In this document: one piece after another, positions 7,159-38,379 of the stretch
How the letters are laid out: each line of letters starts with the position of its first letter
Numbering within the stretch: position 1 is the stretch's first letter
NCBI GenBank assembly: GCA_965372715.1
Contig: CBDVDH010000003.1
Coordinates: forward strand, 34,495 to 98,494
Length of the DNA: 64,000 nucleotides
Reading direction: 5' to 3'
Source of the DNA: an uncultured bacterium
GTDB lineage: Bacteria; B130-G9
Made by a program: the position numbers and the translations under genes
The notes under the pieces: model-generated
The model's input: only the letters and a program-made list of their open reading frames with translations
Database searches by the model: none
What the model was told of the DNA's origin: nothing

Positions 7159-8511
7159 TCATGACAGTTTCGTCCAGACTCTTTCTCTCTCATCCAGAAG
7201 GAGCCTGTCAATGGCCTCTTTGCCCTGCATGAAGGAGTGGTCGGTGTTGCCGACCTCGTATCGCCAGCCGCCAAATCTGCCCCGCGAGAGAATATCATGC
7301 GCCTCAAAGAACTCGAGCATCAGCTTTAGGTTCTTGTCTCGGTCCAGCGTCGGGACGGGGTAGGAGCGCTGGACCTTGATGACCTTCGTGCTTACAACCG
7401 CGTCGAAGTCCTCCGGCGAGATAAGTCCCGCTGCGACCAGGCCGTCCAGCGTGCTTTTCACCGCGTCGGCCGCGACCCTATCGACTTCGTTCGGCTGGCA
7501 AGAGACCTCGCAAACGAGCGAGTAATGGCCCGCCTCGGGCACGTTGTTGGGCGAGTAGTTGGAGAAATAGGTAACGCGGTAGAACGGGCAGTTGCTCTCC
7601 GGGAAATACATCCAGCACTTGTCGCTGGGGCACGGCTTTTCAAAGCCCAGGCCGATCATCACGCCAGCCGTAGTTCCAAGCCCGGAGGCCGCGTCACGCA
7701 CATCATCCGGCGCGCCTCGCGTGATTGAGGCCAGTTCGTCGAGCGGGATGCTGCTCAGAAGCGCGTCGTAGGTCGTTCGCTCGCCATTTTCAAACTGGAT
7801 GGTCTTGGCTCTAGGATCGAGGGAAACGATCCGGCGCCTCAGGTGGAGATGGTCCTCGATGTGACGTCGGTAGCCCTCAAACATCGCCCCAGTGCCGCCG
7901 TTGAGCGGGAACCTGAACTTGCTGTTGGGGCCCCAGCCGACGTCGTCCCGCTCGAGGATTACGTTGCTCAGCACCCTCTCAAAATCGATGACGCTGACTC
8001 GGTCGGCAATCCAATCCTTCGAAATCCTTTCGAGCGGGAACTTCCAGACCATGTCGTTATACGGAACCATAAAGTGCTTGGAGATGCCCTTCCCGAAGAC
8101 CGCGTCAATCCACTCTCGAAAGTTGCCAACGGGCCGTTCATTCCTCGACGCCTCCAGCAAGCCGACGAGGCATTCGAGAACCACGTCGCTTCTAAGATAG
8201 CGGATGTTATTCTGAAATGGATACGGGACCCATCTGCCGTGTATCCTCACGAAACTCCGCCGCTCGTGCGCGAGGTAATCGTCGCCCAGAACGCCGTCGA
8301 TATACCTATCGAAGTAGTCGTAGTGCGAAAACAAGACGTGGCCGCCGATGTCCCACACGAAGCCCTTATCATCCGAAAAGGACGCCGCAAGCCCACCGAC
8401 GTAGTCGTTCTGCTCGTATATGTCCCAGTCCTTGTAGCCCAATTCGTTCAGCCGATACGCAGCGCCAATGCCCGTCGGCCCCGCGCCCAGGATTACAATT
8501 CTCTTTTTCAA
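7159..8511 (-). CDS. FAD/NAD(P)-binding flavoenzyme, UDP-galactopyranose mutase (Glf)-like
   Basis: N-terminal Rossmann GxGxxG (ILGAGPTGIGAAY). The region IYEQNDYVGGLAAS...WDIGGHVLFSHYDYFDRYIDG parallels Glf (D.R.HIGGN...GPHIFHT). The C-terminal GGWRYEVGNTDHSF parallels Glf GRLGTYRYLDMD. At 450 aa it is longer than canonical Glf. Confidence 0.6.
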   Translation of the reverse strand: MKKRIVILGAGPTGIGAAYRLNELGYKDWDIYEQNDYVGGLAASFSDDKGFVWDIGGHVLFSHYDYFDRYIDGVLGDDYLAHERRSFVRIHGRWVPYPFQNNIRYLRSDVVLECLVGLLEASRNERPVGNFREWIDAVFGKGISKHFMVPYNDMVWKFPLERISKDWIADRVSVIDFERVLSNVILERDDVGWGPNSKFRFPLNGGTGAMFEGYRRHIEDHLHLRRRIVSLDPRAKTIQFENGERTTYDALLSSIPLDELASITRGAPDDVRDAASGLGTTAGVMIGLGFEKPCPSDKCWMYFPESNCPFYRVTYFSNYSPNNVPEAGHYSLVCEVSCQPNEVDRVAADAVKSTLDGLVAAGLISPEDFDAVVSTKVIKVQRSYPVPTLDRDKNLKLMLEFFEAHDILSRGRFGGWRYEVGNTDHSFMQGKEAIDRLLLDERERVWTKLS

Positions 8512-9699: not shown

Positions 9700-9952
9700 C
9701 TCGCTCCGTCCCGGATAGGCACTTCGCTGCGTGTCCTAACGACGAAGCCAGCTGCGTCGTGAGACGCCATCGGTCTCGGCCGTTGCTTAGGCAAATACAA
9801 TCCACCACCGGCAGCATCCAGTCGCAATCTCATACGAGTTCACTCCCCACTTGTGATTATATGGTTTCCAACCGTACCCGTTTTCCGGTTATGCCCCAGA
9901 TAGTACTCCAGGGATGAGATATCACCAAGTATTTGTTGTTCAATAAACGAGC

Positions 9953-9996
9953 TTGACATTAAATCTACTATAATGGTATATTATTGGCAGAGGTGA
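9953..9996 (+). promoter_or_regulatory. Putative sigma70-type promoter and SD for the rrf2-led operon
   Basis: AT-rich island in a GC-rich genome. TTGACA (9953-9958) is followed by N18 then TATATT (9977-9982). The SD GAGGTG (9990-9996) lies just before ATG 10000. Confidence 0.4.
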
Positions 9997-9999
9997 ATA

Positions 10000-10428
10000 A
10001 TGAAACTATCAACACGGTCCAGATACGGACTCAGGGCAATGGTTTTTATAGCTCGCAATGCGGCGCGAGTCGTCTCGAGCGAGATCATCGCAGAGAATGA
10101 GGATGTCTCAAAGAAGTACCTCGACCGGATCCTGAACCAATTGAGGAGGTCCGGCCTGTTGAGAAGCGTCAAAGGGCAGGGTGGAGGATACGTTCTTTCG
10201 AGACCGGCGGACGAGATCCGAACCGATCAGATAATCGCGGCACTTGAGGGCAGTTTGTGCCTCGTTGCGTGCGTTGACGAGCCATCCCTATGCAGGAAAG
10301 CGGCAGACTGCCGCACGCGCAAAGTGTGGTCTCTTATTGCCTCGGCGGTCAGCGAGAGCTTGCGGGGTATTTCCCTTCTTGAGCTTGCGGTCGGGGAAGG
10401 AATGAAAGGGTGTCGCGGCCCACAGTAG
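10000..10428 (+). CDS. Rrf2-family transcriptional regulator (IscR/NsrR-like, putative Fe-S cluster ligands)
   Basis: N-terminal wHTH (MKLSTRSRYGLRAMVFIA...SSEIIAENEDVSKKYLDRILNQLRRSGLLRSVKGQGGGYVLSRP) is the Rrf2 signature. The Cys cluster CLVAC...C....C matches IscR-type cluster ligation spacing. Confidence 0.8.
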   Translation: MKLSTRSRYGLRAMVFIARNAARVVSSEIIAENEDVSKKYLDRILNQLRRSGLLRSVKGQGGGYVLSRPADEIRTDQIIAALEGSLCLVACVDEPSLCRKAADCRTRKVWSLIASAVSESLRGISLLELAVGEGMKGCRGPQ

Positions 10429-11297
10429 GACAACTCGGAGTCAAGAAGGAGTTTGCGCAAATCCCAACCGGCAGGGAGTTTTTGGGAAGGACTATGACGA
10501 GGCAGGGCGAAAGCACGGTTATGTTCTCTGGCGGACTCGATTCCACAACCACCGTCGTGTTGCTGTCCGAGGTCTATGAGAAGTTGCACCTTCTGACGTT
10601 TTGCAATGGCTATGGCCACTGTTTCGTGCGTTGGTCAGAGAAGCAAATGCCTAACTTCGACCGGATACTAGGGAAAGATCGCTATGTTCACATCATTCAA
10701 GACTGCTCGGACCTCTTTGAGCGACTTCTGATCGACACACTGCCCGGGGACTACCGAGCCTACAGGTCCAAGTTCATCTGGTGCATGGCCTGCAAGCTGG
10801 CGATGCACACGTGCACTATAATGTATTGTCTGGAGCACGGGATTCGGCATTCCTCGGACGGGTCATCCACTCAGACCAACTATTACGTGGAGCAGATGGA
10901 GGCGAACCTGAAGGCCATCAAAGACTACTACGGGGAGTTTGGGATAGATTTCTCGATGCCGGTTTACAGGGTTGGCAGTCGAGATGAGGAGAAGCGGATA
11001 CTTGCGCAGAAGGGAATCAAGAAGGTTGGCCTGAGCATCGCGGGCAGGAACCCAGGAACGCAGCCGCTGTGCGTGCCCGGCAACTTGATCTACCTTTTCT
11101 CGACGTTCTTCAAGATACACCCGAGATATGCCGAGCACGATGTTCTGCGATTTATCGACGAGAAGAAAAGAATTGCTGTGTCCTACATGAGAGAAAAGCT
11201 CGGCGAGAAGGGCTTGGACGTGGACCAGCTCGCTCTGAAATTGAAAGGAGGCGAGGCAGCAAGATGGCGTGCTGCGGACTTAGCGGCAAGGGCATGA
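10410..11297 (+). CDS. PP-loop ATP-pyrophosphatase superfamily protein (QueC/LarE/TtuA-like) with conserved CxxC...C; paralog 1
   Basis: PP-loop SGGLDS (MFSGGLDSTTTVVLL) with a QueC-like continuation (LHLLTFCNGYGH). Mid-protein CxxC (FIWCMACKLAMH) and a C-terminal GTQPLC. The true start is possibly the internal M at ~10494 (MTRQGESTVMFSGG). It overlaps the rrf2 stop. Confidence 0.65.
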   Translation: MSRPTVGQLGVKKEFAQIPTGREFLGRTMTRQGESTVMFSGGLDSTTTVVLLSEVYEKLHLLTFCNGYGHCFVRWSEKQMPNFDRILGKDRYVHIIQDCSDLFERLLIDTLPGDYRAYRSKFIWCMACKLAMHTCTIMYCLEHGIRHSSDGSSTQTNYYVEQMEANLKAIKDYYGEFGIDFSMPVYRVGSRDEEKRILAQKGIKKVGLSIAGRNPGTQPLCVPGNLIYLFSTFFKIHPRYAEHDVLRFIDEKKRIAVSYMREKLGEKGLDVDQLALKLKGGEAARWRAADLAARA

Positions 11298-11641
11298 CCT
11301 CAATGCTCGGGTTGCTCGTATTTGTAACTCTTTCGTTCATATTCGGAGGTCTGGGCGTTTTGTTGCTCGGCTTCCTCGGAGTGTTCTCCAAACGCTTCCG
11401 GTTCTGGGCTCGGACGCTCGTGACCGTGCTCTCGGTATCCGTGCCGCGGATGTTTCACGAGCTGCTCAACGATTCGTATTTCTGGCGGCCGGACCTCAAG
11501 TGCGTCGTTTCAGGGAAGCTCTTCGGCTACTCGCCGGCCTTCTCCGGATTTGTTTTCAAGTATTTCAATCTGTTCGTGATAGTAGGGATGTTCGGCCTAA
11601 TGGGTCTCCTGGCGGGCGCAATAGTCAAACTTGCGGGATGA
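11264..11641 (+). CDS. Small integral membrane protein (~125 aa, 3 predicted TM helices)
   Basis: AAGGAGG (11244-11250) upstream of ATG 11264. Hydrophobic segments LGLLVFVTLSFIFGGLGVLLLGFLGVF and FNLFVIVGMFGLMGLLAGAIV. It lies between PP-loop paralog 1 and the cysteine desulfurase. The alternative start is 11294. Confidence 0.4.
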   Translation: MACCGLSGKGMTSMLGLLVFVTLSFIFGGLGVLLLGFLGVFSKRFRFWARTLVTVLSVSVPRMFHELLNDSYFWRPDLKCVVSGKLFGYSPAFSGFVFKYFNLFVIVGMFGLMGLLAGAIVKLAG

Positions 11642-12866
11642 GAGCATGACTTTGGACGTTACGAGCATAAGAAAGCTCTTTCCTGCGCTCCAGGTTAAGG
11701 TCAAGAAGAAACCGGTCGTCTATCTGGACAACGCCTGCATGTCGCTGAAGCCGATTCCCGTTGTTGAGGCGATGAACGATTACTACTATTCATATCCGGG
11801 CTGTCACGGCAGAACGGCCTACTATTTCGGACGGCGCACCACGGAGGAGTATGACCGGGCTCGGGAACGGCTTGCCAGGTTGATCAACGCTCCCCAGTCC
11901 AAGGAGCTGATCTTCGTCAAGAACACCAGCGAGGGCCTGAACCTCGTCGCCAACTCGCTGCCCTTTTCGGAGGGCGATGCCGTGGTCACCACCAATGTGG
12001 AGCACAACTCCAACCTCCTGCCCTGGCAGGTGCTCAAGCGCCGGCGGAAAGTGGAGCACGTCATCGTGAAACTCAGAGAGGACCTGACGTTCGACCGCTC
12101 GGCCCTCACAGAGGCGATGTCGAGCAAGGTGAGGCTCGTCAGCGTGGCCCAAACGTCGAACCTGACGGGCGTGACGATGCCGGTCAAGGAAATCGCTGAA
12201 ATCGCCCACCGTCATGGCGCCCTGGTGATGGTCGATGGGGCACAGTCCGTGGCCCACAGCAAGGTTGACGTTCAGGACCTGGACATCGATATCCTCGTCT
12301 TTTCCGTGCACAAGATGATGGGCCCGACCGGCGTTGGCGTCCTCTGGGCAAAGGAGGAGGTGCTGAACAAGATGGAGCCGTTCATTGTGGGTGGTGAAAC
12401 TGTGCTGAACACGTTCTACGACAGCTATATCCCCGCCGGTCTGCCTGACCGATTCGAGGCGGGACTTCAGAACTACGCGGGGGCAATCGGGGCCGGAGTC
12501 GCGGCGGAATACCTGATGAATCTCGGGCCTGACGAGGTTCACGAGCACGAAGTGGCCCTCAATCGCATCATGACCGATATGCTCAAGGACATTGACGGTC
12601 TTAGCATAATCGGCCCAGACGCCCCTGAACTGCGCGGTGGGATTCTCAACGTGTCCGTCGATGGGATGAAGGCGCTGGAAGTCGCTCGCATACTCGATCA
12701 GGCCAACAACATCATGGTTCGGGCTGGCTACCTCTGCGTCCACTCGTGGTACAACGCCTGCGACTTGCCGCACTCAATCCGCGCCTCGGTCTATGTCTAT
12801 AACACGCCCGCCGAATGCGCGCTATTCGCCGACGTTCTGACCAAACTCGTCAAGCACTACCGGTAG
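11631..12866 (+). CDS. Cysteine desulfurase / class-V aminotransferase (SufS/NifS-like)
   Basis: PLP-lysine motif SVHKMMGPTGVGVL. Putative persulfide cysteine in RAGYLCVHS (compare SufS RSGHHCA). Full-length class-V fold (VYLDNACMS...TSEG.N.VA...DGAQSVAH). Confidence 0.85.
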   Translation: MRDESMTLDVTSIRKLFPALQVKVKKKPVVYLDNACMSLKPIPVVEAMNDYYYSYPGCHGRTAYYFGRRTTEEYDRARERLARLINAPQSKELIFVKNTSEGLNLVANSLPFSEGDAVVTTNVEHNSNLLPWQVLKRRRKVEHVIVKLREDLTFDRSALTEAMSSKVRLVSVAQTSNLTGVTMPVKEIAEIAHRHGALVMVDGAQSVAHSKVDVQDLDIDILVFSVHKMMGPTGVGVLWAKEEVLNKMEPFIVGGETVLNTFYDSYIPAGLPDRFEAGLQNYAGAIGAGVAAEYLMNLGPDEVHEHEVALNRIMTDMLKDIDGLSIIGPDAPELRGGILNVSVDGMKALEVARILDQANNIMVRAGYLCVHSWYNACDLPHSIRASVYVYNTPAECALFADVLTKLVKHYR

Positions 12867-12875
12867 GGGTTCTCT

Positions 12876-13691
12876 GTGTCTCAGTGTCTCTGTGGTGAGA
12901 GGATAGACGTCGTGAAGGAGAACGAACCGGAGCGGAGTGCGAGGAGGCCGGCTGTTACGTTGATGTATTCGGGCGGGTTGGATTCGACGGTCACGGCACT
13001 GACGCTTGCCGGGCAATACGACAAGGTTCATTTGCTCACTTACGCCCGGGGTTATGGTCACTGGTTCGTGGGCCGGTCAAGGGTGCGCGTCCCGGAGCTC
13101 GAAAAGCACCTCGAAAGGAGCGTTTTCACTCAGTTTAGAGCCAGCGTGAAGGGACTCTTCAAGAAGATCGTCCTCGATAGCTTCGTCGCGGATTTCAGGA
13201 AGTACAAAGCGTTGTTTATTGTCTGCGTGGGCTGCAAGATGGCGATGCACGCCCGTTCGGTGATCTACAACCTCGAACACGGAATCCCATGCGTGTCTGA
13301 TGGGTCCGCCGAGACGACGGCCTGGATGCCGGACCAGATGCCGGTCACGCTGGCCGAATACAAACGGCTTCACGAGGACTACGGGCTGACCTACTCGAAT
13401 CCTGTCTATCACTTCGGCACCCGGGAGAAGGCGCGTGAGACGCTTCGCGCGGCGGGCCTCTCGATGGGGCGCCGCATCGCGGACCGGGACTTCGGGACGC
13501 AGCCTGTCTGCCTCTTCGGCGACGTAATCACGATATTCCGCGAGTTCATGAAGGTCGGCCTCCCGCTGAAGGAGGAGAGCATCGTGGATTTCATGCGTGA
13601 GAAGCGGCCAATCCTCGACGACTACATCAAGGATTACTTTGTCCAGAACGGCCTTGATTTATACGAGCTGAAGGAGCGGGTGGCCCAGTGA
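12876..13691 (+). CDS. PP-loop ATP-pyrophosphatase superfamily protein with conserved CxxC...C; paralog 2
   Basis: LMYSGGLDSTVTALTL, VHLLTYARGYGH, FIVCVGCKMAMH, GTQPVCLFGD. Collinear with paralogs 1 and 3. Confidence 0.65.
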   Translation: MSQCLCGERIDVVKENEPERSARRPAVTLMYSGGLDSTVTALTLAGQYDKVHLLTYARGYGHWFVGRSRVRVPELEKHLERSVFTQFRASVKGLFKKIVLDSFVADFRKYKALFIVCVGCKMAMHARSVIYNLEHGIPCVSDGSAETTAWMPDQMPVTLAEYKRLHEDYGLTYSNPVYHFGTREKARETLRAAGLSMGRRIADRDFGTQPVCLFGDVITIFREFMKVGLPLKEESIVDFMREKRPILDDYIKDYFVQNGLDLYELKERVAQ

Positions 13692-13984: not shown

Positions 13985-15454
13985 CTATCCCCCCTTCATC
14001 TGCCCCTTCAATAGCTCAAGGTTCTCCCGGACAAGTCTCGTCTTCGGATGATCGTCGCCCAGGAACTTCCTGAATATTGCAATCGCCCGCTCATAGCACT
14101 CCTTCGCGCCGTTCAGATCGCCAAGGGCCTTAAGCACCAAGCCAAGATTATTCACGCAAGTAGCAACTGTCGGATGGTCCAGGCCATAGGAATCCTCAGC
14201 TATAGAACGACCCCGCTCACAAGACTTCTTAGCGCTATTCAGATTGCCAAGGGCCTGAAGCACTATGCCAAGATTGCTGACCCGAATGGCAACGTTCGGA
14301 TGGCCCGGGCCAAAAGCCTTCTCGTCGATAGCAAGCGCTCGCTCAATACACTTCTTCGCGCCATTCAGATTACCAAGGGCCTGAAGCACTATGCCAAGAT
14401 TGCTGACCCGAATCGCAACGTTCGGATGGTCCGAGCCAAAAGCCTTCTCGTCGATAGCAAGCGCTCGCTCAATAGACTTCTTCGCGCCATTCAGATCGCC
14501 AAGGGCCTGAAGCACTATGCCAAGATTGTTCAGGTGAGTCGCAACTTCAGGATGATCAGGGCCAAAAGCCTTCTCGTCGATAGCAAGCGCTCGCTCATAA
14601 CGCTCCTTCGCGCCGTTGAGATCGCCAAGGTCGCGAAGCACCGAGCCAAGATTGTTCACGTCCCTCGCAACATCGGGGTGGTCCGGGCCATAAGAAGCCT
14701 CGTCTATCTTAAGTGCTCGCTCAAAACGCTCCTTCGCGCCGTTGAGATCGGCAAGGTCTTGAAGCACCATGCCAAGATTGTTCACGTAAGCTGCAACTGT
14801 CGGATGGTCCGGGCCATAGCAAGCCTCGTGTACGGCAAGCGCCCGCTCATAACACTCCTTCGCGCCCTTCAGGTCACCAAGGTTCTGAAGTACCGAGCCG
14901 AGATTGTTCACGTCAGTCCCAACTCGAGCATGATCGGGGCCAAGAGCCTTCTCGTCGATGGCAATCGCTCGCTCAAAAGACTCCTTCGCCCCTTTCAGGT
15001 CACCAAGGTCCTGAAGTACCGTGCCGAGATTGTTCACAATCGTCGCAACCTCGGGATGATCTGGGCTATAGACCGCCTCATAGATCGCAAGCGCCCGCTC
15101 GTAACAGTCCTTGGCCTGTGAGAAGTCAGCGCGGCCTCCCAGATACAGGCCAGCCTGATTGAGCAGGCGCCTGAGAGCATTCGAAGCCAGGCCAATCGCT
15201 TCCGCGTGGCCGGCCGCGGCGAGCGCATGCGCTATCAGCCGGGAGCATTCGGACCAGGTCGTAACGTCATGACTGTCGTCCGGAAAGGCGTCGTTCAGTA
15301 GCTCGACTGCCGCCTCGACCAAATCAGTTTTGTTCTGACCTGACAGCCTGTCTCGCGCGACAGCCTGAAGCAATCGGTGCAGGCTGGCGTGGTTTCCTTC
15401 CCGGTCGATCAACGAGTAGCGCTTCAGGTTCTGGACGGCCTTGTCGAATCGCAT
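13985..15454 (-). CDS. TPR-repeat segment (C-terminal part of an interrupted TIR-NB-ARC-TPR STAND protein)
   Basis: About 10 tandem 42-aa TPR_10/12-like units (NNLG.VLQ.LGDL.GAKE..ERALAIDEKA.GPDHP.VA). It is in the same frame as the upstream NB-ARC ORF. The sequence just after the in-frame TAG (LKRYSLIDREGNHASLHRLLQAVARDRL) is the winged-helix motif normally contiguous with NB-ARC. Confidence 0.8.
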   Translation of the reverse strand: MRFDKAVQNLKRYSLIDREGNHASLHRLLQAVARDRLSGQNKTDLVEAAVELLNDAFPDDSHDVTTWSECSRLIAHALAAAGHAEAIGLASNALRRLLNQAGLYLGGRADFSQAKDCYERALAIYEAVYSPDHPEVATIVNNLGTVLQDLGDLKGAKESFERAIAIDEKALGPDHARVGTDVNNLGSVLQNLGDLKGAKECYERALAVHEACYGPDHPTVAAYVNNLGMVLQDLADLNGAKERFERALKIDEASYGPDHPDVARDVNNLGSVLRDLGDLNGAKERYERALAIDEKAFGPDHPEVATHLNNLGIVLQALGDLNGAKKSIERALAIDEKAFGSDHPNVAIRVSNLGIVLQALGNLNGAKKCIERALAIDEKAFGPGHPNVAIRVSNLGIVLQALGNLNSAKKSCERGRSIAEDSYGLDHPTVATCVNNLGLVLKALGDLNGAKECYERAIAIFRKFLGDDHPKTRLVRENLELLKGQMKGG

Positions 15455-15502
15455 TCTGTCTTTGGCCGCGGCGGCAAGCGAACGCGGCAGAAAGCGCGCG
15501 CC

Positions 15503-16903
15503 CTAGCGGATCACGTCCAGCGGGATTCTGTCCGGCGCGAAGAAGGCGAAGAGATTCATCAATTCTGCCGCAACGGGGCGTTCCTCTTTGAACTTCTCTG
15601 ATGTGATCTCCCAGGTGGTTGCGACGGATTTCTCGTACGGGTCCAAGTTAGAGCATCGCTCCAGAAGCTCCTTCTGCCGCTTTCGAAAGAGATCGAGGTA
15701 GTCTGAGGCGGAGCAACCCGTCTCCTCCAGGTAGGCCGCCGCCTGTTCCAGCGCGAGCGGAAAGTCGCCGAGCTCCCTCGAAAGCTCGCGGAAACCCGCA
15801 TCGTCCTCTCTGCCCGTTCGTTTGCCAATGAACTCGACGGATTTGTCAGGCTCAAACTCCTTCACCTTGATCGGCTGCGCGATGCCCCTGAAGCTCGGAT
15901 TCCGAGAGGTCGCGATCACGTGGCCTTTGCCGCCCTCTGGAATCAAGTCGGCAATGTCGCTTGGCTCACAGACGTTGTCGAAGACGAGAAGCCAACCTCG
16001 CCGCCGCCCGAGCTCCCTTCTCACCGCCTCAATGGCTTCGGGCTGGTTCATGGGATCGATGCCCGGCAGCTTAAGCTCCGCGCCCAGTGAGGCATAGTCG
16101 TCCCGCAGCGTTGGGGCAAGCTCGGACCTCATCCACCAGACGATCTCGTAGTCGGCGCAGTGCCGATACACGTATTCGAGCGCAATCTGCGTCTTCCCGA
16201 TGCCGCCCAGGCCGTGCATCGCCTGTGATATGACGCCGACCTTGCCAGAACTCAATGCACTCTCCAACCTGGCAAGATGCTCCTCGCGGCCCGTGAAGTT
16301 GCGGTTCCTCGAATGCGGCACGTTCCAGACCGGGGGCAATGCACCGGGGAAACGCCGACCTGGAGGCTCTTTAGCCACATCCTCGGCAATGCCCGGAAAT
16401 TCGGGCCTGGTGGTCGCTTCGCTCGGGCCCATGAGATCGGCAAGCAGTTTTGCTCTGGCTTGGTCTTCATTCAGGGCCGCCAGATTGATGTACTTCCTGC
16501 CCGAGAGAATCCCGAGCGGCGTGTCCTTATCAATCAAGACCGGGACAAATCGTGAAGGCTGACCTTCTTCATTTGTGTAGAGAGCGGACGATATCTCGTC
16601 CCAAACAGCACGAGATGCTAACGAACGAGGGGAGAGCAGAACCATGACGCGCTCCGCCTCGAGCGAGGCGTCATACATGTGCTTGTGGATGTTCTCTCCG
16701 GTCCCGAAGTCCCTTTTGTCTCGAATATAAGTGTAATTCACGCCGTCCAACTGCCAGCAGATCCAATCGGCCCACTGCGAATCGCCATGAGAGTAGCTTA
16801 TGAAAAAGTCCTTCATCTCAAATCCAATTGTGGTGCGAACGGGCGTAATAACCGACAAGAGGAAAGAATGAGCTATTCGAGGCCCGAAATCAATGAATAT
16901 CAA
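15503..16903 (-). CDS. TIR domain + NB-ARC (STAND) ATPase segment; the ORF terminates at an in-frame TAG 16 codons before the TPR ORF
   Basis: TIR signature FFISYSHGDSQWADWICWQLD. P-loop GLGGIGKTQIALEY, Walker B LLVFDNV and a GHVIATSRN (RNBS-like) motif. The stop TAG at 15503-15505 is in frame with the 13985..15454 ORF. Confidence 0.75.
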   Translation of the reverse strand: MIFIDFGPRIAHSFLLSVITPVRTTIGFEMKDFFISYSHGDSQWADWICWQLDGVNYTYIRDKRDFGTGENIHKHMYDASLEAERVMVLLSPRSLASRAVWDEISSALYTNEEGQPSRFVPVLIDKDTPLGILSGRKYINLAALNEDQARAKLLADLMGPSEATTRPEFPGIAEDVAKEPPGRRFPGALPPVWNVPHSRNRNFTGREEHLARLESALSSGKVGVISQAMHGLGGIGKTQIALEYVYRHCADYEIVWWMRSELAPTLRDDYASLGAELKLPGIDPMNQPEAIEAVRRELGRRRGWLLVFDNVCEPSDIADLIPEGGKGHVIATSRNPSFRGIAQPIKVKEFEPDKSVEFIGKRTGREDDAGFRELSRELGDFPLALEQAAAYLEETGCSASDYLDLFRKRQKELLERCSNLDPYEKSVATTWEITSEKFKEERPVAAELMNLFAFFAPDRIPLDVIR

Positions 16904-27102: not shown

Positions 27103-27792
27103 TCAATGCTCACCCTCGGCGCTCGACTCAGCGGCGATCTTTGCCTTATGGCGAATGATGTCTCCCTCAACAAGATAGATGACATCCTCGGCGACGTTCG
27201 TGGCCAGGTCAGCGATCCTTTCCAGCTGACTTGACACGGACACGAAGTGCATCAGTCTGGCGATCTTGTGCGAGTCCTTCTTCATTTCTACTATGGCCGC
27301 CGCATAGTTCTTGCGATTCATGTCGTCTATCACGTCGTCCTCCGCGATGACAAGGCGGGCAAGGGCCTCATCTTGATGGACGAGCGCATCCAGACTCCTC
27401 TTGACCATCGATTGCACGGAACGTTTCATATCGGCAAGATTGAACGGAGGCGCGATCTTGGCCTTTGTCGTCAGGTATAGCGCCCTTTCGGATATATTGA
27501 CGGCCAAATCGCCCATTCTCTCGAGGTCGTTGTTGATCTTCATCGCCGAGGCGATGAGCCGTAGGTCTTGGGCGACGGGCTGGTGTAGCGACAGAATCTT
27601 CAGGCACTCCTCCTCAAGCAGGACCTCCATCTCGTCTATGGACGCATCCCCCTCAATCACCTTTTGAGCAGAATCCGCGTCTCTTTCGTCGATGGCGACA
27701 ACAGCGAATCTGATGGCCTGCTCCACGAGCGCTCCGACCTCTAGGATTTTGCATTTCAGCCGCTCGATCTCTCGTTGAAGCCTAAGTGTCAT
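27103..27792 (-). CDS. phoU: Phosphate signalling complex protein PhoU
   Basis: Two PhoU repeats with the conserved E..D...N.D.ER.GD motifs (NNDLERMGDLAVNI ; SSQLERIADLATNV). Confidence 0.85.
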   Translation of the reverse strand: MTLRLQREIERLKCKILEVGALVEQAIRFAVVAIDERDADSAQKVIEGDASIDEMEVLLEEECLKILSLHQPVAQDLRLIASAMKINNDLERMGDLAVNISERALYLTTKAKIAPPFNLADMKRSVQSMVKRSLDALVHQDEALARLVIAEDDVIDDMNRKNYAAAIVEMKKDSHKIARLMHFVSVSSQLERIADLATNVAEDVIYLVEGDIIRHKAKIAAESSAEGEH

Positions 27793-27803
27793 ATTGCGCC
27801 TCC

Positions 27804-28631
27804 TTAGCCGAACCGGCCCGTTATGTAGTCGTTTGTCATTTTGTCGGTTGGGTTGGTGAACAATTCCTTAGTCCGGCCAAGCTCGATCAGCTTGCCCTGG
27901 TAGAAGAAGGCGGTCCAGTCCGAGACCCTGGCCGCCTGCTGCATATTGTGCGTTACAATAACGATCGTGTATTCCTTCCTCAGGTCCCTGATGAGGTCCT
28001 CAATCTTTGAGGTGGCGGTCGGATCGAGCGCGGAAGCAGGCTCATCCATGAGGAGTATCTCGGGGCCGACTGCGAGCGCTCTGGCTATGCACAGCCGTTG
28101 CTGCTGGCCGCCGGACAGGTCAAATGCGCTAGTGTCAAGTCTGTCGTTAACCTCTTTCCACAGCCAAGCGCGTCTGAGGCTCTTCTCCACAATTTCTCTC
28201 AACTTCCTCTTGTCCCGGACACCGTGAATACGAGGTCCGTAGGCCACGTTGTCGAAAATGGACTTGGGGAACGGATTCGATTTCTGGAAGACCATTCCGA
28301 CCTTGCGCCTCAGCCCGACGACATCGCAGCTCTCGGAAAGAACCTCCTGGCCGTCGATGAGAATCGTGCCGCAAGCGCGCACGCCATCGATTTCGTCGTT
28401 CATTCGGTTGATGGTTCTGAGAAAAGTGGATTTGCCGCATCCGGACGGTCCGATGATGGCCGTTACCTTGCCGGGCGGAATATCCATCGATATGTCGAAC
28501 AGAACTTGGCTGTCCTTGTAGAAAAAGTCGAGGTCTCTGACCTTTATTCTGACGTCCCGCGGGACTAGCTCAGATTCGACTTCACCAGCGGAGCTTCTTT
28601 CTAGAACGGCTTCTGAGCACAACTGCGACAA
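27804..28631 (-). CDS. pstB: Phosphate ABC transporter ATP-binding protein PstB
   Basis: Walker [10 protein letters not shown], signature [14 protein letters not shown], Walker [13 protein letters not shown]. PstB-specific N-terminal context. Last gene before phoU. Confidence 0.9.
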
Positions 28632-29442
28632 GATTCATTCCTAATACGAGCGCAATCAGAACCAGCGCGGTCCCGTATTGCATTGTTTTGGCTTTCTCAG
28701 CGTCAGGATACTGAGTTGCCATGACAAATAGGTGGTATGGCAGCGCCATTACCTGATCAAAGATTGATTGAGGAAGCTTCGGCAAGAAGAAGGCAACGGC
28801 CGTGAACAGAAGAGGCGCTGTCTCCCCAGCCGCCCGGCCTATGCTGAGGATTGACCCAGTGAGAATCCCTGGAAGTGCGAACGGCAGGACATTGTGCCAT
28901 ATCGTCTGCCACTTGGTGGCCCCAAGGGCAAGGCTCGCGTCCCGTAGCGATTTGGGTACAGCTCTTAACGCCTCCTCTGTCGAGACGATAATGATCGGCA
29001 ATATCATCGAGGCCAGCGTCAGGCATCCGGCCGCAAGCGACGTCCCGAAGCCCAACAGTAGCACGAAGACGCCAAGCCCGAACAGGCCGAATACTATGGA
29101 TGGAACGCCCGCCAGCGTTATGATTCCAACACGGATGGCCCTCGTCAGTTTGCTGTCCTTCGCGTATTCCGAAAGGTAGATCGCGCCTCCGACGCCAATG
29201 GGGAACGCGACGAGCATTGTGCCGGCGACCAGATAGAGAGTCCCCACAATGGGAGCGAGTATGCCGCCCTCTACGCCACCACCCCGCGGCGATTCGGTTA
29301 GGAAGCTCCAGGATATGGCGCCTATGCCTCTAACGACGATGTCGAGAACGACGTAGCCTATTGCGGCCACGACAAGATAAGTTATGCCGCGCATGATGTG
29401 AAAAGACGGGTTCTTGAGTATCCGGCTTTTGCTGATTTTCAT
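28582..29442 (-). CDS. pstA: Phosphate ABC transporter permease PstA
   Basis: 6-TM permease with an EAA-like loop. It sits between pstC and pstB. Confidence 0.85.
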
Positions 29443-30320
29443 TCCGCTATTCTGCTTTTTCGGAGAACATATTGAGCAATCCAGTTTGTCCCGATTGTGA
29501 TGATGAGCAGGATGACACTTATTAGGAATAGGACATGATAATGGACGCCTCCAAAGGCCACTTCGCCCATCTCGGCAGCAATCGTCGCCGTCATTGTCCG
29601 AACGGGATCGAAGACGGACCCGGGTATCTCAATGGCATTGCCGGTCACCATTATGACCGCCATTGTCTCACCGATGACCCGCCCCATGCCCATCAGTGAG
29701 GCAGCGACTAGGCCCGATCGCGCAGCCGGAACTGTTGTCCTGAAGACTGTCTGCGCGGGCGATGCGCCCAGGGCAAGCGAGGCGTCGATGTAGTTTTTGG
29801 GCACGCTCCTTAAAGCGTCCTCCGAGATGGTGATGATTGTCGGCAGAGCCATGAAGGCCAAGAGGAGCGAGCCGGTCAGTGCACAAAGCCCACTGTCAAG
29901 CCCAAACACGCTCTTGACCAATGGAACCATGATCATCAGCCCGAAGAACCCGAGCACGACTGAGGGTATCCCAGCCAAAATCTCGACGGCAGGCTTGAGT
30001 ATCTCCCGCTCGAGCGGGCAGGCTATGTGAGAGATATAGACGGCAGCGCCCAAACCCAGCGGCACCGCGATCAGCGCAGCCAGCAGCGTAACGAATAAGG
30101 AAGATACAAAAAGCGGCGCTATGCCGAACTGCTCTTGCACAAACGATATCGGCCGCCAAATCGTGCTTGTAAAAGAGGAGAGAGGGACCTCCCAAAGAGC
30201 AGGGAGACCCTCCCTCACAAGCGAGATTAGGATCGCTGTAACTAACAGAACTGAGGCCGAGGCGCAGACCAAGAGGCCCGGTCTGACCCACCAGTCTGCG
30301 CCTTGCTTATTGGTCTTCAT
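29439..30320 (-). CDS. pstC: Phosphate ABC transporter permease PstC
   Basis: 6-TM permease with an EAA-like motif ([20 protein letters not shown]). It follows pstS. Confidence 0.85.
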   Translation of the reverse strand: MKTNKQGADWWVRPGLLVCASASVLLVTAILISLVREGLPALWEVPLSSFTSTIWRPISFVQEQFGIAPLFVSSLFVTLLAALIAVPLGLGAAVYISHIACPLEREILKPAVEILAGIPSVVLGFFGLMIMVPLVKSVFGLDSGLCALTGSLLLAFMALPTIITISEDALRSVPKNYIDASLALGASPAQTVFRTTVPAARSGLVAASLMGMGRVIGETMAVIMVTGNAIEIPGSVFDPVRTMTATIAAEMGEVAFGGVHYHVLFLISVILLIITIGTNWIAQYVLRKSRIAE

Positions 30321-31201
30321 TACTTCCCGAGGGGAACGAATCTCATCTTCTCGACGATCTTCTGCCCGTCAGGGCTCTTCACAAAAAGCAGGAACTTGCC
30401 GGCCGCGCCGGTCGGCTGACCATTAGTGTACATGAGAAGCGGTCTGGAGATGGGATAGTCCCCGTTTGCCACGGTCGCAACCGAAGGTGTTACCGCAGAA
30501 GCTTTCTCGGACTTCTTAACCTTTATCATCTTCACGTCGGACGTAAGCGCGTATCCCAACCCGATGTAGCCGATGCTAAAGCGGTCTTGTGTTACGGAGT
30601 TTGCAATGGCTGCGTTGGACGGAAGCATTCTCGCGCTGGTGGTGTAGTCGTCCTTCATCAGCACGTGCTCCTGGAAATAGAGATACGTCCCGGAGGAAGT
30701 GTCTCGTGTCAGCACGCCAATCCTCTTGTTGGGGCCGCCCACCTGACGCCAGTTAGTGTAGCTGCCGTTGAATATCCTTCGTATCTGCTCGAGTGTCAAC
30801 GCGCCCACAGGGTTCTTCTTGTTGACAACGACCGAGATGCCGTCGTAGGCAACAATGTGCTCAACCGGCGTGATGCCGAGCTGGGCCGCCCTGTCCTTCT
30901 CCTTCTGCTTCCAGCGCCTCGAGCAGTTTGCGATGTCGCAAGTACCGTTAAGCATGGCGGCAATCCCTGTGCCTGAGCCGCCGCCGGTCACCGAGATGGA
31001 GACATCAGGCCGCTGCTTCATATACTCCTCCGCCCAAGCACTGGCGAGATTGACGATTGTGTCCGAGCCCTTCACAACCACGTGCTGGCTCTGCTGCCCA
31101 ATCGCCGGCGTCGCCAACTGAGCAACCGTCAGCAGCAGCGCTAGCGCCCCGACCGTTGCGATTGTCCTGAACCTGTCGAAAACTCTGCGTTTGGCGTGCA
31201 T
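30320..31201 (-). CDS. pstS: Phosphate-binding periplasmic protein PstS
   Basis: Signal peptide. PBP-like_2 motifs (SISVTGGGSGTGIAAM ; TRDTSSGT). Confidence 0.8.
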   Translation of the reverse strand: MHAKRRVFDRFRTIATVGALALLLTVAQLATPAIGQQSQHVVVKGSDTIVNLASAWAEEYMKQRPDVSISVTGGGSGTGIAAMLNGTCDIANCSRRWKQKEKDRAAQLGITPVEHIVAYDGISVVVNKKNPVGALTLEQIRRIFNGSYTNWRQVGGPNKRIGVLTRDTSSGTYLYFQEHVLMKDDYTTSARMLPSNAAIANSVTQDRFSIGYIGLGYALTSDVKMIKVKKSEKASAVTPSVATVANGDYPISRPLLMYTNGQPTGAAGKFLLFVKSPDGQKIVEKMRFVPLGK

Positions 31202-31350
31202 TGCTCTCCTCTCAGCTTGTTAGTTAGCTTTTGCCAAACATGCCGGCCCGTTATCGGGCCTTCTCAATTCCGAAGACACAATGAGGCCCGTGATTTAACC
31301 GCGCATGACCGTTGCGCAAAGATTTGGTTAAGCCGTAAGGTTTGGAGGGT

Positions 31351-33120
31351 CTATTCTGCCGGCAGGATGATTGTGAACGTGGAGCCTTGTCCGGGCTGGC
31401 TCTCGACGGAGACGCTGCCGCCGTGTGAGGTAACGATGTGCTTGACGATGGAGAGGCCGAGGCCCGTTCCGCCGAGCTCGCGTGAGCGTGCTCTATCGAC
31501 CCGATAAAAGCGCTCGAAGATGCGCTTCTGGTGCCGCTTCTCTATCCCAATACCGTCATCTGTCACGTTGAGAATCGCCATGTTGCCCTTGAGACAAACC
31601 TCGATGGCGATATGACCGCCTTCACCGGTGTATTTGACCGCGTTATCTACGAGGTTCGCAATCGCGTGCTCTAGCAGGGACTCATTAGCCGTAACGTTGA
31701 CCGGGCGCTCGGGCGCATCGAGGCGGATTTCTATCCCCTTGCTGGAGGCGATATCCGCGAAGTTAGACCTTACGCGCTCGGCGACGGAGACAACATCAAT
31801 CAATGACACACTATTCTTATCTTGCCCCGCCTCCAACGCGGCCAGCTGCAATAAGTCATCTATCATGGCGTTCATGCGGTCTGCATGTTCTTTGACGGTC
31901 GAGAGGAACTCCGGCAGTTTCTTGGTGTCGTGCAGAGCACCATCAAGGAGCGTCTCGACGTAGCCCTTGACGAGAGTTATCGGCGTCTTCAGCTCGTGGG
32001 ACACATTCGCGACGAAGCTCTTCCTCACCTCCTCAAGTCGCCGCATTTTGGTCACGTCGCGGGCAACTATGAGGCTGCCGACTCTGTTGCCATTGCCTCC
32101 TATGAGAGGAACCGCATGGAGGCTCAGAACCCGATAACCTGCCCCGTGAAGAGCCAGCTCGGTCTCCGACGGGCCCGCTGCTGCCTGAGCTTCCTTGACG
32201 AATTGGGCAAGTTCAGCGTTGCGAACCGACTCGATGAGCGTCCTCCCCTCGACGCTCTCTCGCTCGGCCCCTATCATCTCTTTGAACGCGTCATTCGCCA
32301 GCAATACCTTCCCGGTTGTGTGGACGGTGATAACTCCCTCCTTCATACTGGCTAGAATGGCCTCTCTCTCATTCCGCTCAGCTGCGAGCGCTTGAACATT
32401 TGCCTCTAGGTTGTCCGCCATTTCGTTGAATGCTCTGGACAACATGCCGAGCTCATCATCGGTTGAGACCTGCACTCTCACGTCCAATTCGCCTCTGCCA
32501 AGCCTTCCGGCTGCACTGCCTAGCGCCTCAAGAGGTTTAGCTATCGCGCGAGCGAGAAGGCCGCTTACAACTAATGCAAGTGCTGCCGCAATCAGCGCCC
32601 CCACGCCCAGCGCAGCATAGACCGTCCACAGCTGTTCGGTGACCTCATCCTCTGGAACTGCGACTCGCACTACGCCAACCGGCTCATTCTCGGAAGGCAC
32701 AGGTATGGCAACGTAGAACGTGCGCTTCCGAAGGGTCTTGCTGAAGCGGACGTTTTTGCCCAGCCCAGTCTCGAGCGCCCCTACAACCTCGGGACGAGAG
32801 CCGTGATTGTCCATCGTCCCGGGGTCTGCAAGAGAATCGCCCAGGACAACACCGCTGCGGTTCATTATGGTGATCCTGGTTCCCGTGGTCCGGCCTATTT
32901 GTTTGCAGACTACGTCGGTCTCTATGGGCCTTCTATCTTGGGCGATCAGGAGAAATCTCTGCGAGGCGAGCTCGGCCTGAACAACGATGTCGGCCTCGAG
33001 CTTCGAGAGAAAATAGTCCCTCAGCGAGACACCCGCATATATGGCTACCGCACAAACGCAGATTACAATGACCGTCACGTATGAGACGTAGAGCGTGCTA
33101 TAAAGACGCTTCATCTTCAC
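31351..33120 (-). CDS. phoR: Phosphate regulon sensor histidine kinase PhoR-like (TM-HAMP-PAS-HisKA-HATPase_c)
   Basis: H-box SHELKTP. N, G1 and G2 boxes (NLVDNAVKY ; DDGIGI ; GGTGLGLSIV). It is translationally coupled to phoB. Confidence 0.8.
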   Translation of the reverse strand: MKMKRLYSTLYVSYVTVIVICVCAVAIYAGVSLRDYFLSKLEADIVVQAELASQRFLLIAQDRRPIETDVVCKQIGRTTGTRITIMNRSGVVLGDSLADPGTMDNHGSRPEVVGALETGLGKNVRFSKTLRKRTFYVAIPVPSENEPVGVVRVAVPEDEVTEQLWTVYAALGVGALIAAALALVVSGLLARAIAKPLEALGSAAGRLGRGELDVRVQVSTDDELGMLSRAFNEMADNLEANVQALAAERNEREAILASMKEGVITVHTTGKVLLANDAFKEMIGAERESVEGRTLIESVRNAELAQFVKEAQAAAGPSETELALHGAGYRVLSLHAVPLIGGNGNRVGSLIVARDVTKMRRLEEVRKSFVANVSHELKTPITLVKGYVETLLDGALHDTKKLPEFLSTVKEHADRMNAMIDDLLQLAALEAGQDKNSVSLIDVVSVAERVRSNFADIASSKGIEIRLDAPERPVNVTANESLLEHAIANLVDNAVKYTGEGGHIAIEVCLKGNMAILNVTDDGIGIEKRHQKRIFERFYRVDRARSRELGGTGLGLSIVKHIVTSHGGSVSVESQPGQGSTFTIILPAE

Positions 33121-33880: not shown

Positions 33881-35074
33881 TCAGAACTTGACCTTCAGGT
33901 CTGCTTGAATCGTGAAGTGGTCGTGACTTCTCTGCGCCTGGAGAATGTCCTTGGGCTCAGTCAGAAGGCCAGTGAGGTGCAGGGATGCCTTCTTGAACGG
34001 CTGATAGCCGATGCTCAGTTTGTGCCCTTTTCGATTGGCATGGCCGAAGTCAGAGTCGCAGAAGTCGCCTGGCACCGCATTGGCCTCAATATAGGCATAC
34101 TTGTATTTGATCTCCCAATCGTGTTTCTTCTTACACTTGCCGATATTCAGATGAGCCGCCAAAGCAGTATCTTTGCCCTCGAACTCCGACGCTCCTTTGG
34201 AATCATCGGTTGTGTTAATGGCGTAATCCAGCACAACCTTTACAGGGATGTCACCAAGTTTGGCGCCAAGCTCAGCGACTACGTCAAAGACGTTAAAATC
34301 ACCGGCCGCCAGAACTCCATCCGCATCGACTGCGTTGCCATGAGATCCTCTGAAGCTTCTCTCATACTCGTCGAAGTCATAACATGTCGCCGCAAGGGTG
34401 GCTGAGAATGAATCCCCGTTGAAGCTCACCCCTGTCTGACAGGCGAGCATCCCGGTGTCATGATCTGTATCCATTTTATTCTCATCGAGAAACATCTCCG
34501 CTAGTGTGACGAAGGAAGTAAAGGCTCCGTTGTTCCATTCGTAGCTCTGATACAGACCGTCCATGTTGACGTCGGAATCCCAGATGATGTCCGTGTGAAT
34601 AAACGGATTCTTCACCTTGCCGCCTGCCAGTCTGAGACCCGGCGCCTCTGGCGGAGTATATTCAACATATCCGAGGTCAATCCAAACCGCCTTCTTGTTG
34701 TAATGAGCCTCTAGGGTCTGATTTGTGGAAGTTGGATCATCGCTGGAGCCGCTAGCCAATCTGAATCCGACCTTCAGCCCTTCATCTTCGTGTTCCTTCG
34801 TGAAACCGAACCTCAGGCGGAATCTGCCTCTATGCCTATCATTCTCCCGTTCCTTGTCGTCGGCGTCGGTGTATTCCCACCATTCGCCCTGGTAGCGGAG
34901 ACGGAAGTCGGCCTTGAACTTCAATCCTCGAAGCCACGTGAGACCGTGATCCTTGAGCCATTGGTCCATTGCGCCATCGTCGGGCTCACCGGCCCAAACA
35001 ATACCTGAAGACAACGCAGCTCCTCCAATCAGCAAGGCAACTGCGACAACTATAAGATGTCTGCTCCTATACAT
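33881..35074 (-). CDS. Outer-membrane beta-barrel porin, probably a phosphate-selective (OprO/P-like) porin of the Pho regulon
   Basis: Signal peptide. Alternating amphipathic beta-strands and a C-terminal aromatic residue (…LKVKF). Directly upstream of the phoB-phoR-pstSCAB-phoU block. Confidence 0.5.
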   Translation of the reverse strand: MYRSRHLIVVAVALLIGGAALSSGIVWAGEPDDGAMDQWLKDHGLTWLRGLKFKADFRLRYQGEWWEYTDADDKERENDRHRGRFRLRFGFTKEHEDEGLKVGFRLASGSSDDPTSTNQTLEAHYNKKAVWIDLGYVEYTPPEAPGLRLAGGKVKNPFIHTDIIWDSDVNMDGLYQSYEWNNGAFTSFVTLAEMFLDENKMDTDHDTGMLACQTGVSFNGDSFSATLAATCYDFDEYERSFRGSHGNAVDADGVLAAGDFNVFDVVAELGAKLGDIPVKVVLDYAINTTDDSKGASEFEGKDTALAAHLNIGKCKKKHDWEIKYKYAYIEANAVPGDFCDSDFGHANRKGHKLSIGYQPFKKASLHLTGLLTEPKDILQAQRSHDHFTIQADLKVKF

Positions 35075-38377: not shown

Positions 38378-38379
38378 TC

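Follow-up and report, generated by a model that had tools for sequence, protein, structure and literature searches.

The subject of the present analysis is a five-gene operon in a 64,000-nucleotide stretch of DNA from an uncultured bacterium (contig CBDVDH010000003.1, a metagenome scaffold of 159 kb, assembly GCA_965372715.1), which is referred to here, at its full length, as the window. The operon occupies 3.7 kb of the + strand (10000-13691) and encodes, in this order, an Rrf2-family regulator, a PP-loop ATP pyrophosphatase (A), a small hydrophobic protein, a SufS-like class-V enzyme dependent on pyridoxal 5′-phosphate (PLP), and a second PP-loop ATP pyrophosphatase (B). A third PP-loop paralog (C) lies in the same window, outside the five-gene operon. 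A, B, and C are almost certainly adenylating enzymes of the family of YcfA from Erwinia amylovora. The chemistry in which they take part is quite probably sulfur insertion, and the evidence inclines somewhat towards reading the operon as a self-contained sulfur-insertion system on the branch of the YcfA family that carries a triad of cysteines (the Cys-triad or “C-type” branch). A first-pass annotation made from the letters of the sequence had proposed an ATP-dependent thiolation or sulfur-insertion pathway, and this proposal is supported; three findings that could have told against it, namely membership of the PP-loop proteins in the QueC clade, cysteines not conserved among orthologs, and no desulfurase or Rrf2 association in other genomes, were looked for and none occurred.

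PP-Loop Proteins and the YcfA Family

The PP-loop proteins are about 240-270 residues long and consist of a PP-loop core followed by C-terminal helices. They are mutually 31-46% identical, B and C sharing 46%, and they display the features of the PP-loop (adenine nucleotide α-hydrolase, AANH) superfamily, that is, SGGxDS after the first β-strand and a Rossmann-like α/β fold. Common to all three are SGGLDST, GYGH, CxxCK(L/M)(A/V)MH, LEHGI, and GTQP(V/L)C; the motifs quoted by the first-pass annotation (SGGLDS, CxxCK(L/M)(A/V)MH, and GTQP(V/L)C) are therefore present in each paralog, and the third paralog which it had pointed out is real. SGGLDS is found in A and, at residues 32-37, in B. The cysteines of interest are C125, C128, and C221 in A, C117, C120, and C212 in B, and C100, C103, and C195 in C, the first two of each set being separated by two residues.

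The “QueC-like N-terminus” of the same annotation is only a generic PP-loop. In Pfam and NCBIfam, A and B fall below every cutoff, and all matches are limited to the PP-loop N-terminus. The QueC model PF06508 gives 20.1 bits for A and 15.2 for B, each over about 30 residues and under the cutoff of 22, and paralog C is marginally above it (26.3 bits) over residues 24-88, which correspond to positions 2-60 of the 210-position profile. The other QueC model, TIGR00364, yields 19-23 bits for the three proteins (C 22.8) against a cutoff of 150.3. The C-terminal Cys4 zinc site of QueC is missing from B, whose cysteines are placed at 4, 6, 117, 120, 139, and 212 with no CxxCxxC, and the profile searches do not place the three proteins inside the QueC clade. 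Some orthologs of paralog C are named “7-cyano-7-deazaguanine synthase” (QueC) by NCBI on a weak match to the PP-loop only, and this name is probably a misannotation. The MnmA and ThiI cutoffs are not reached by the PP-loop proteins, and PADLOC returns no match for A and B and a weak QatC/QueC PP-loop match for C. Judged by sequence, the PP-loop proteins of the window are not QueC, LarE, MnmA, ThiI, or Dnd/Ssp proteins; the earlier view that no standard named pathway is matched holds, the marginal QueC match of C being the only one above a Pfam or NCBIfam cutoff and DndC/SspD being absent from the PADLOC results.

Among all PDB sequences, a single match is real, that to Erwinia amylovora YcfA, with E-values of 3e-12 (B), 6e-17 (C), and 9e-32 (a profile of 48 family sequences, which covers 230 of 257 positions); with the other PP-loop enzymes, the match is confined to the first 30-60 residues. 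The same result is obtained from the fold. The AlphaFold2 model of B has a pLDDT of 91.1, and the top 20 Foldseek matches of this model are YcfA chains (E 8e-14, TM 0.73/0.89), followed by MnmA at 3e-6. The first-pass annotation had suggested comparing folds with QueC, LarE, TtuA, TtcA, MnmA, and ThiI; YcfA, the nearest characterised relative by a wide margin, was not among the enzymes that it considered. Homology with YcfA is therefore full-length in both sequence and fold, at an identity of 22-24%.

YcfA and YcfC form the 6-thioguanine system of Erwinia amylovora (PDB 9KQ6/9KQ7/9KQ9), in which YcfA is a two-ring 14-mer (PMC12494993). YcfA activates guanine nucleotides by adenylation and attaches free L-cysteine to them, and YcfC, a PLP enzyme without the desulfurase cysteine, cleaves the adduct to yield a thioamide (PMC12494993).

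No Pfam or NCBIfam model is dedicated to the family to which these proteins belong. When 1.84 billion cluster representatives were searched exhaustively with HMMER, 186 proteins passed a threshold of E<=1e-30 and 525 passed E<=1e-10. All relatives are from uncultured genomes (Coatesbacteria, Myxococcota-type metagenome-assembled genomes (MAGs), and marine archaea), and none is characterised. When YcfA itself is used in blastp, two proteins that lack the cysteines are the nearest, followed by Cys-triad proteins at 35-40% identity. Because its next relatives carry the triad, YcfA looks like a Cys-less offshoot of a larger Cys-triad family. The relatives closest to YcfA include fusions with NUDIX (P0173, P0174, and P0227) and with DUF523, the 2-thiouracil desulfurase (P0137 and P0181), and NUDIX or DUF523 genes also adjoin such relatives (7723-8322 in locus L007; 8623-9027 in L075/L077). 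These links hint at free nucleotides or nucleobases as substrates in the YcfA-proximal branch.

Cysteine Triad and Active-Site Residues

C117, C120, and C212 (B numbering) are invariant in 48 homologs. The census of the triad was made on the best 149 cluster representatives from the HMMER search. The full C-C-C pattern is present in 111 of them, and most of those without it are fragments: 22 show C-C followed by a gap, 11 show D-C-C or D-C-gap, and two have the YcfA-like L-E-S or L-E-gap. The conservation of these cysteines among orthologs is thus established. In YcfA the three positions are taken by Leu98, Glu101, and Ser186. In the model of B, the long helix 114-135 opens with CxxC. C212 comes just before helix 213-225 and three residues past Q209, which is aligned with the Mg-ATP-binding Glu183 of YcfA.

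A similar arrangement is known from sulfur-inserting enzymes. The first two cluster ligands of TtuA are placed in a rigid α-helix, and MnmA occurs as a C-type (iron-sulfur, Fe-S) and a D-type according to the residue at the first ligand position (PMC7025502). The Cys/Asp alternation at the first triad position of the present family parallels the latter division. The third cysteine is 92 residues from CxxC here, a distance that compares with 88 residues in TtcA of E. coli and 127 in CtaC. On the strength of motif, conservation, and topology, it is fairly likely that the triad holds an Fe-S cluster. The first-pass annotation had compared the site with those of TtuA, TtcA, and LarE; the likeness stands for the PP-loop and for the pattern and topology of the triad, not for family membership.

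The residues around the nucleotide are partly shared with YcfA. Kept in both are the PP-loop Asp (D19 in YcfA, D36 in B), Gln135 (Q154 in B), and Glu183 (Q209 in B; Q or E across the family). It has been reported that Gln135 of YcfA aligns the ATP α-phosphate and the base and that Glu183 holds Mg-ATP (PMC12494993). Conversely, the L-cysteine-binding residues Arg18, Tyr128, and Gln129 of YcfA are replaced in B by Leu35, Thr147, and Thr148, and position 35 is mostly L/T/S/I/V across the family. Phe132, on which guanine stacks in YcfA, aligns with Met151 of B at a variable position (F/Y/H/A/W/M), and the general base Glu134 aligns with Asp153, the residue being E in 80 and D in nine of the 149 representatives.

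Partner Proteins Encoded in the Operon

The SufS-like enzyme matches Pfam Aminotran_5 at 1.7e-109 and aligns over its full length with SufS of B. subtilis (E 9e-86); its score of 402.8 bits with TIGR01979 (SufS) is below the cutoff of 475.1. The PLP lysine is kept (SVHKMMG, where B. subtilis SufS has SSHKMCG), and so is the persulfide cysteine (VRAGYLC, where SufS has VRAGHHC). Since both residues are conserved in 21 true PP-loop-linked orthologs, the PLP partner is classed as a desulfurase-type enzyme and not as a YcfC-type lyase, in agreement with the SufS/NifS-like desulfurase of the first-pass annotation. Across these 21 orthologs, the subfamily has two extra cysteines at SufS active-site positions: one in D-x-A-C-T/M (here DNACM), where SufS has DSAAT, and the other in x-C-H-G-R (here PGCHGR), where SufS has NVHR. 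The two histidines before the catalytic cysteine of SufS are YL or K[HL] in the PP-loop-linked subfamily and YL in the window enzyme. The operon contains no SufE, SufU, or CsdE acceptor and no sufBCD, and no SufE, SufU, or sufBCD was found among the neighbours scanned.

The small protein of 125 residues has hydrophobic stretches at about 9-41 and 92-120 and a third cysteine at position 80. Its gene is translationally coupled to that of PP-loop A by a 34-nucleotide overlap with the Shine-Dalgarno sequence AAAGGAGG. In other genomes, the open reading frame (ORF) that overlaps or abuts the PP-loop stop codon encodes a protein of 65-140 residues with M-[G/A/P]-C-C at its N-terminus. In the consensus, MGCCNKxxDGxPIxRxRY is followed by a hydrophobic stretch and this by PRYRK; only M1, C3, and C4 are invariant, and about 70% of the proteins have a further cysteine near the C-terminus. 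Residue 2 is always of a type that allows removal of the initial Met, and the mature N-terminus would therefore be x-Cys-Cys. A database search found 45 members of this Cys-Cys family, all unnamed. Of 84 related loci, at least 35, marine archaeal ones among them, have such an ORF after the PP-loop gene, in most cases with its start codon overlapping the PP-loop stop, and the ORF is limited to the clade that contains paralog A, being absent beside YcfA-proximal relatives. The small protein is thus a conserved partner of the PP-loop A clade; the first-pass annotation was right to place it within the operon, and its description as unexplained no longer applies in full. Some Coatesbacteria-type operons have a second, diverged copy of the small protein (53-58% identity), which follows the first and precedes the SufS-like gene (L002 6190-6753 and L010 2724-3284). 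In the literature library that was searched, neither YcfA homologs with the cysteines nor the small Cys-Cys protein are described.

The Rrf2 protein scores above the cutoff of TIGR00738 and does not reach the equivalog cutoffs of IscR, NsrR, CymR, or RirA; it is therefore none of these named regulators. Its cysteines form the pattern C91-x6-C98-x5-C104, which is conserved in five other Rrf2 genes beside related PP-loop genes. They align with C92, C98, and C104 of a sequence taken to be that of IscR, in keeping with the IscR-like spacing seen at first pass. The Pfam match is to PF02082 (4e-36). The Rrf2 protein is likely to be an Fe-S-sensing repressor of the operon.

Gene Neighbourhoods in Other Genomes

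A scan of 185,579 species genomes gave 80 loci, all in MAGs. The counts of neighbours refer to 84 related loci, the neighbours having been clustered with conservation-weighted ORF selection. The nearest relatives of the operon are in Candidatus Coatesbacteria MAGs. The order Rrf2, A, one or two small proteins, SufS-like enzyme, and B recurs in L009 and L010, and L002 has A, two small proteins, the SufS-like enzyme, and B without Rrf2. Several PP-loop genes accompany a SufS-like gene and Rrf2 in L033 and L055, and the arrangement of PP-loop, small ORF, and SufS-like gene is found in about 20 Myxococcota-type loci at 36-49% identity. On the whole, a SufS-like gene stands beside the PP-loop gene in 23 of the 84 loci and a three-Cys Rrf2 gene in five. 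The association with desulfurase and Rrf2 is thus seen in other genomes, and the neighbourhood analysis proposed at first pass names as recurring partners the SufS-like gene, the Cys-Cys ORF, ksgA in the case of paralog C, and, rarely, Rrf2. Once the closest relatives are left aside, the link to Rrf2 becomes weak.

Outside Coatesbacteria, the PP-loop gene, with or without the Cys-Cys ORF, belongs to a recurrent cluster in Myxococcota-type MAGs and marine archaea. Besides a B12-binding radical S-adenosylmethionine (SAM) protein, a radical-SAM protein with a SPASM domain (rSAM-SPASM), at least one NodU-like carbamoyltransferase, and a GT2 glycosyltransferase, this cluster includes polysaccharide deacetylase, UDP-GlcNAc 2-epimerase, MBL-fold, FMO-like, and TPR proteins and a 362-residue protein of no named family (loci L005, L017, L022-L024, L028-L032, L044, L051-L053, L056-L059, L070-L090, and L096/L097). 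Counted over the 84 loci, the B12-binding radical-SAM protein is a neighbour in 33, rSAM-SPASM in 28, the carbamoyltransferase in 22, the GT2 glycosyltransferase in 12, the 362-residue protein in 11, and the MBL-fold protein in 10; these genes are not in the window. An NCBIfam scan of the recurrent neighbours found no equivalog, the B12-binding radical-SAM protein being generic BchE/HpnJ-like and below cutoff and the rSAM-SPASM protein generic. Adenosine-deaminase and B12-binding radical-SAM neighbours were also considered as a sign of nucleoside-hopanoid chemistry, and this idea was dropped for want of support.

Proposed Pathway and Alternative Readings

By analogy with the chemistry of the family, A and/or B would bind ATP at SGGLDS, adenylate a carbonyl oxygen of the substrate, and release pyrophosphate; conserved for this step are the PP-loop Asp and the residues which in YcfA position the ATP α-phosphate and Mg. 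The SufS-like enzyme, with its residues conserved, would take the sulfur of L-cysteine as a persulfide on the catalytic cysteine. From there the sulfur would reach the cluster held by the triad, which motif conservation and topology suggest to be probably a [4Fe-4S] cluster with one free iron; possible models of this step are TtuA, TtcA, NcsA, C-type MnmA, and CtaC. Sulfide would then displace AMP from the adenylate and produce a thiocarbonyl. Two further roles are speculative: the Cys-Cys protein might tether the PP-loop enzyme at the membrane, and its N-terminal Cys-Cys might relay the persulfide or complete the cluster. The three-Cys Rrf2 would act as a repressor at the AT-rich promoter, in response to the Fe-S or redox state.

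As to the substrate, RNA is less favoured than an envelope target or a small molecule whose carbonyl belongs to an amide or lactam of nucleobase-like or acetamido-like type. A small molecule is preferred because of the homology with YcfA, the lack of an RNA-binding domain, and the NUDIX/DUF523 fusions of YcfA-proximal relatives. A bolder and still tentative proposal is that the PP-loop enzyme, the Cys-Cys protein, and the SufS-like enzyme form a membrane-tethered thioamidation or thiolation machine for a non-RNA substrate, with the Cys-Cys protein as a new persulfide or cluster-bridging carrier. The substrate of such a machine could be the acetamido group of a lipid-linked amino sugar or a nucleoside-type metabolite, and its product would belong to a class of natural thio-compounds not yet described.

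Some observations weigh against a sulfur-insertion system built on an Fe-S triad. Profile-profile comparison with E. coli TtcA (MG1655) aligned the PP-loop alone and not Cys122/125/213. His125, one to two helical turns past C120, is conserved in 95 of the 149 representatives, so that a Cys3His zinc site is possible. A, B, and C are basic (pI 8.6-9.0), which is compatible with binding of nucleic acids. An adjacent desulfurase is missing from 61 of the 84 related loci, and Rrf2 is adjacent in only five. The hints about the substrate also conflict, with nucleotide-type fusions near YcfA and glycan and radical-SAM neighbours around the Cys-Cys clade.

The basic pI, the linkage of paralog C to ksgA, and the similarity of fold to ThiI keep an RNA target alive, and A, B, and C might accordingly be the housekeeping tRNA or rRNA sulfurtransferases of a candidate phylum, of the 4-thiouridine, 2-thiouridine, or 2-thiocytidine type, with the same adenylation and Fe-S chemistry and with the operon as the supplier of sulfur. 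This is rather unlikely. No THUMP, zinc-finger, or other RNA-binding module is found in the PP-loop proteins, and 186 clusters at E<=1e-30 make a rare family, which would be odd for a housekeeping tRNA enzyme, as would a membrane-anchored partner. Moreover, YcfA, the closest characterised relative, acts on free nucleotides, and other relatives are fused to NUDIX or DUF523 or are located in radical-SAM, carbamoyltransferase, and glycosyltransferase clusters. A mechanism of the YcfA type without Fe-S, in which L-cysteine is added to the adenylated substrate, the PLP enzyme acts as a C-S lyase, and the triad is a structural zinc site or forms disulfides, is improbable in spite of the strong homology. 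In its favour, the pairing with a class-V PLP enzyme follows the same gene logic as YcfA-YcfC, Gln is found at the Gln129 position in 74 of the 149 representatives, and the conserved histidine could complete the zinc site. The window proteins, however, have Leu, Thr, and Thr in place of the three L-cysteine-binding residues, and the persulfide cysteine that YcfC lacks is kept in the 21 true orthologs of the linked PLP enzyme. The triad also adjoins active-site positions, exceeds His125 in conservation, and alternates between C and D in the manner of MnmA.

That the Cys-Cys protein is itself the substrate or carrier, either for a CtaC-like enzyme that thioamidates the peptide backbone or for some other modification that uses ATP and acts on its N-terminus, is hardly probable. 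Translational coupling and the strict N-terminal M-x-C-C across bacteria and archaea agree with such peptide or protein thioamidation, as do the rSAM-SPASM and B12-binding radical-SAM neighbours, which are typical peptide maturases, and CtaC is a precedent for the thioamidation of tethered peptides by an AANH enzyme. On the other hand, the small protein is hydrophobic and poorly conserved past residue 4, a leader/core layout, a protease, and an exporter are all lacking, no radical-SAM gene accompanies the window operon, and YcfA-proximal relatives are without the small protein. Very improbable is a chemistry that does not involve sulfur, namely amidation or the formation of a nitrile or amidine (as in QueC, ArtA, or the N-acetyl-sugar amidotransferases), with a desulfurase which only matures clusters. 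Matches of this kind fall well short of the one to YcfA (27.8), 23 loci share a dedicated SufS-like subfamily, and among characterised AANH enzymes the three-Cys open-site motif is specific to sulfur insertases.

Operon Layout and Genomic Setting

All ORFs of the operon were found at their expected places. The gene junctions are overlaps of 19, 34, and 11 nucleotides or gaps of 5/9 nucleotides, and the region upstream (9930-9999) has a G+C content of 28.6% compared with 56.7% for the window. Together with the TTGACA-18-TATATT site, this confirms five co-oriented, overlapping or near-abutting genes behind an AT-rich promoter. Only two promoter-like sites occur in the 4.6 kb scanned, about the number expected by chance, so that the weight of the promoter rests on the quality and position of the site and not on the count. 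In the whole window (1-64000), no Rfam family reaches the gathering score and no riboswitch or known structured RNA is found; control of the operon by a sulfur- or SAM-responsive RNA is therefore not indicated.

Coordinates of the operon, of paralog C with its neighbours, and of other genes in the window
Feature	Position	Strand	Details
Sigma-70-like promoter	9953-9982	+	TTGACA-18-TATATT; extended -10 TG; 11/12 matches; 18 nt 5′ of the Rrf2 start
Rrf2-family regulator	10000-10428	+	142 aa; Pfam Rrf2 (PF02082) 4e-36
PP-loop ATP pyrophosphatase A	10410-11297	+	295 aa from GTG; 267 aa from alternative ATG 10494
Small hydrophobic protein	11264-11641	+	125 aa; starts MACCGLSGKG; Shine-Dalgarno AAAGGAGG upstream
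SufS-like class-V PLP enzyme	11631-12866	+	411 aa from TTG; 406 aa from ATG 11646
PP-loop ATP pyrophosphatase B	12876-13691	+	271 aa
TPR-repeat protein	13985-15454	-	489 aa
TIR + NB-ARC (STAND-type) protein	15503-16903	-	Weak PADLOC bSEFIR/TIR matches
Phosphate uptake/regulation set	27103-33120	-	PhoU, PstB, 2-3 permeases, PhoR-like PAS/HAMP histidine kinase, response regulator
Putative porin	33881-35074		
Zinc-ribbon/HDOD/HD protein	36471-37532	-	Gene after paralog C
PP-loop paralog C	37598-38377	-	259 aa from ATG 38377; ORF spans 37598-38419
ksgA (RrnaAD)	38380-39243	-	Stop 3 nt ahead of the likely ATG of paralog C

The order ksgA, paralog C, and HDOD protein is kept in Coatesbacteria relatives (L093, L094, and L095), where C is 74-83% identical and the ksgA stop abuts the start of C. 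A single large cluster joining the three paralogs was considered and rejected, as the 24 kb between the operon and C consist of housekeeping genes (GlmS, a ClpB-like protein, the Pst/PhoU/PhoR set, and the porin). Amino-sugar and glycan genes are present in the flanks of the operon. The TPR and TIR/NB-ARC genes directly downstream (13985-16903) resemble a gene pair for immunity or signalling that has no connection with the operon. An anti-phage defence reading, prompted by weak QatC/Cap9 similarity and by the adjacent TIR/NB-ARC gene, was rejected because the PP-loop proteins have no PADLOC match beyond the weak one of C and because the operon recurs without such neighbours.

Comparison with Known Systems

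Most of what is understood about sulfur insertion by PP-loop enzymes concerns tRNA, and three cases that involve a small molecule or a tethered peptide are known, which are LarE, YcfA, and CtaC. In this regard, YcfA, recently presented as an oddity of mechanism, is part of a larger family that is uncharacterised and nearly all of which has an Fe-S-type Cys triad, and the family is a natural case in which to examine how one fold can pass between an Fe-S-dependent mechanism and one that uses a cysteine adduct. Two new candidates for a part in sulfur trafficking are the small Cys-Cys protein and the SufS subfamily, with its additional cysteines at active-site positions. Given the clusters with radical-SAM, carbamoyltransferase, and glycosyltransferase genes, the product of the family may be a thio-metabolite or an envelope modification. 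The compactness of the five genes within 3.7 kb makes heterologous expression straightforward. What is rated as new here is the combination of an Fe-S-type branch of thioamide/thiolation enzymes with a small partner and a specialised SufS-like enzyme.

With respect to YcfA, the window proteins have three cysteines in place of Leu98/Glu101/Ser186 and do not keep the L-cysteine site, and their operon adds a small Cys-Cys partner and an Rrf2 regulator, neither of which accompanies YcfA. The PLP partner differs from YcfC by the persulfide cysteine, which is absent there and kept here. The combination of a PP-loop with CxxC...C is shared with TtuA/NcsA/TtcA, C-type MnmA, archaeal ThiI (TtuI), Fe-S LarE, and CtaC, the last of which is a thioamide synthetase of the AANH type whose Fe-S site has the form CxxC...C (PMC6772006). 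Like the [4Fe-4S] sulfur insertases, for which the proposed mechanism is an attack of sulfide bound to the free iron on the adenylated substrate, the present proteins have CxxC at the start of a helix, a third cysteine about 90 residues further on, and a putative source of desulfurase-derived sulfur. They differ from TtuA, TtcA, NcsA, and CtaC in that sequence membership does not extend beyond the PP-loop and that tRNA-binding and zinc-finger modules are absent.

The PLP enzyme resembles the type II desulfurases SufS/CsdA in its full-length SufS alignment, PLP lysine, and catalytic cysteine, whereas it is set apart from them by a score below the NCBIfam SufS cutoff, YL in place of HH, two extra cysteines, and an operon without SufE/SufU/CsdE/sufBCD. 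Finally, a cysteine desulfurase combined with a PP-loop-type ATP pyrophosphatase is also the design of DndA/DndC and SspA/SspD. The match of the desulfurase to DndA/SspA is at the generic class-V level (160 bits), and the operon differs from the Dnd and Ssp systems in having no PADLOC match to DndC/SspD and no DndB, DndD, DndE, SspB, or SspC genes.

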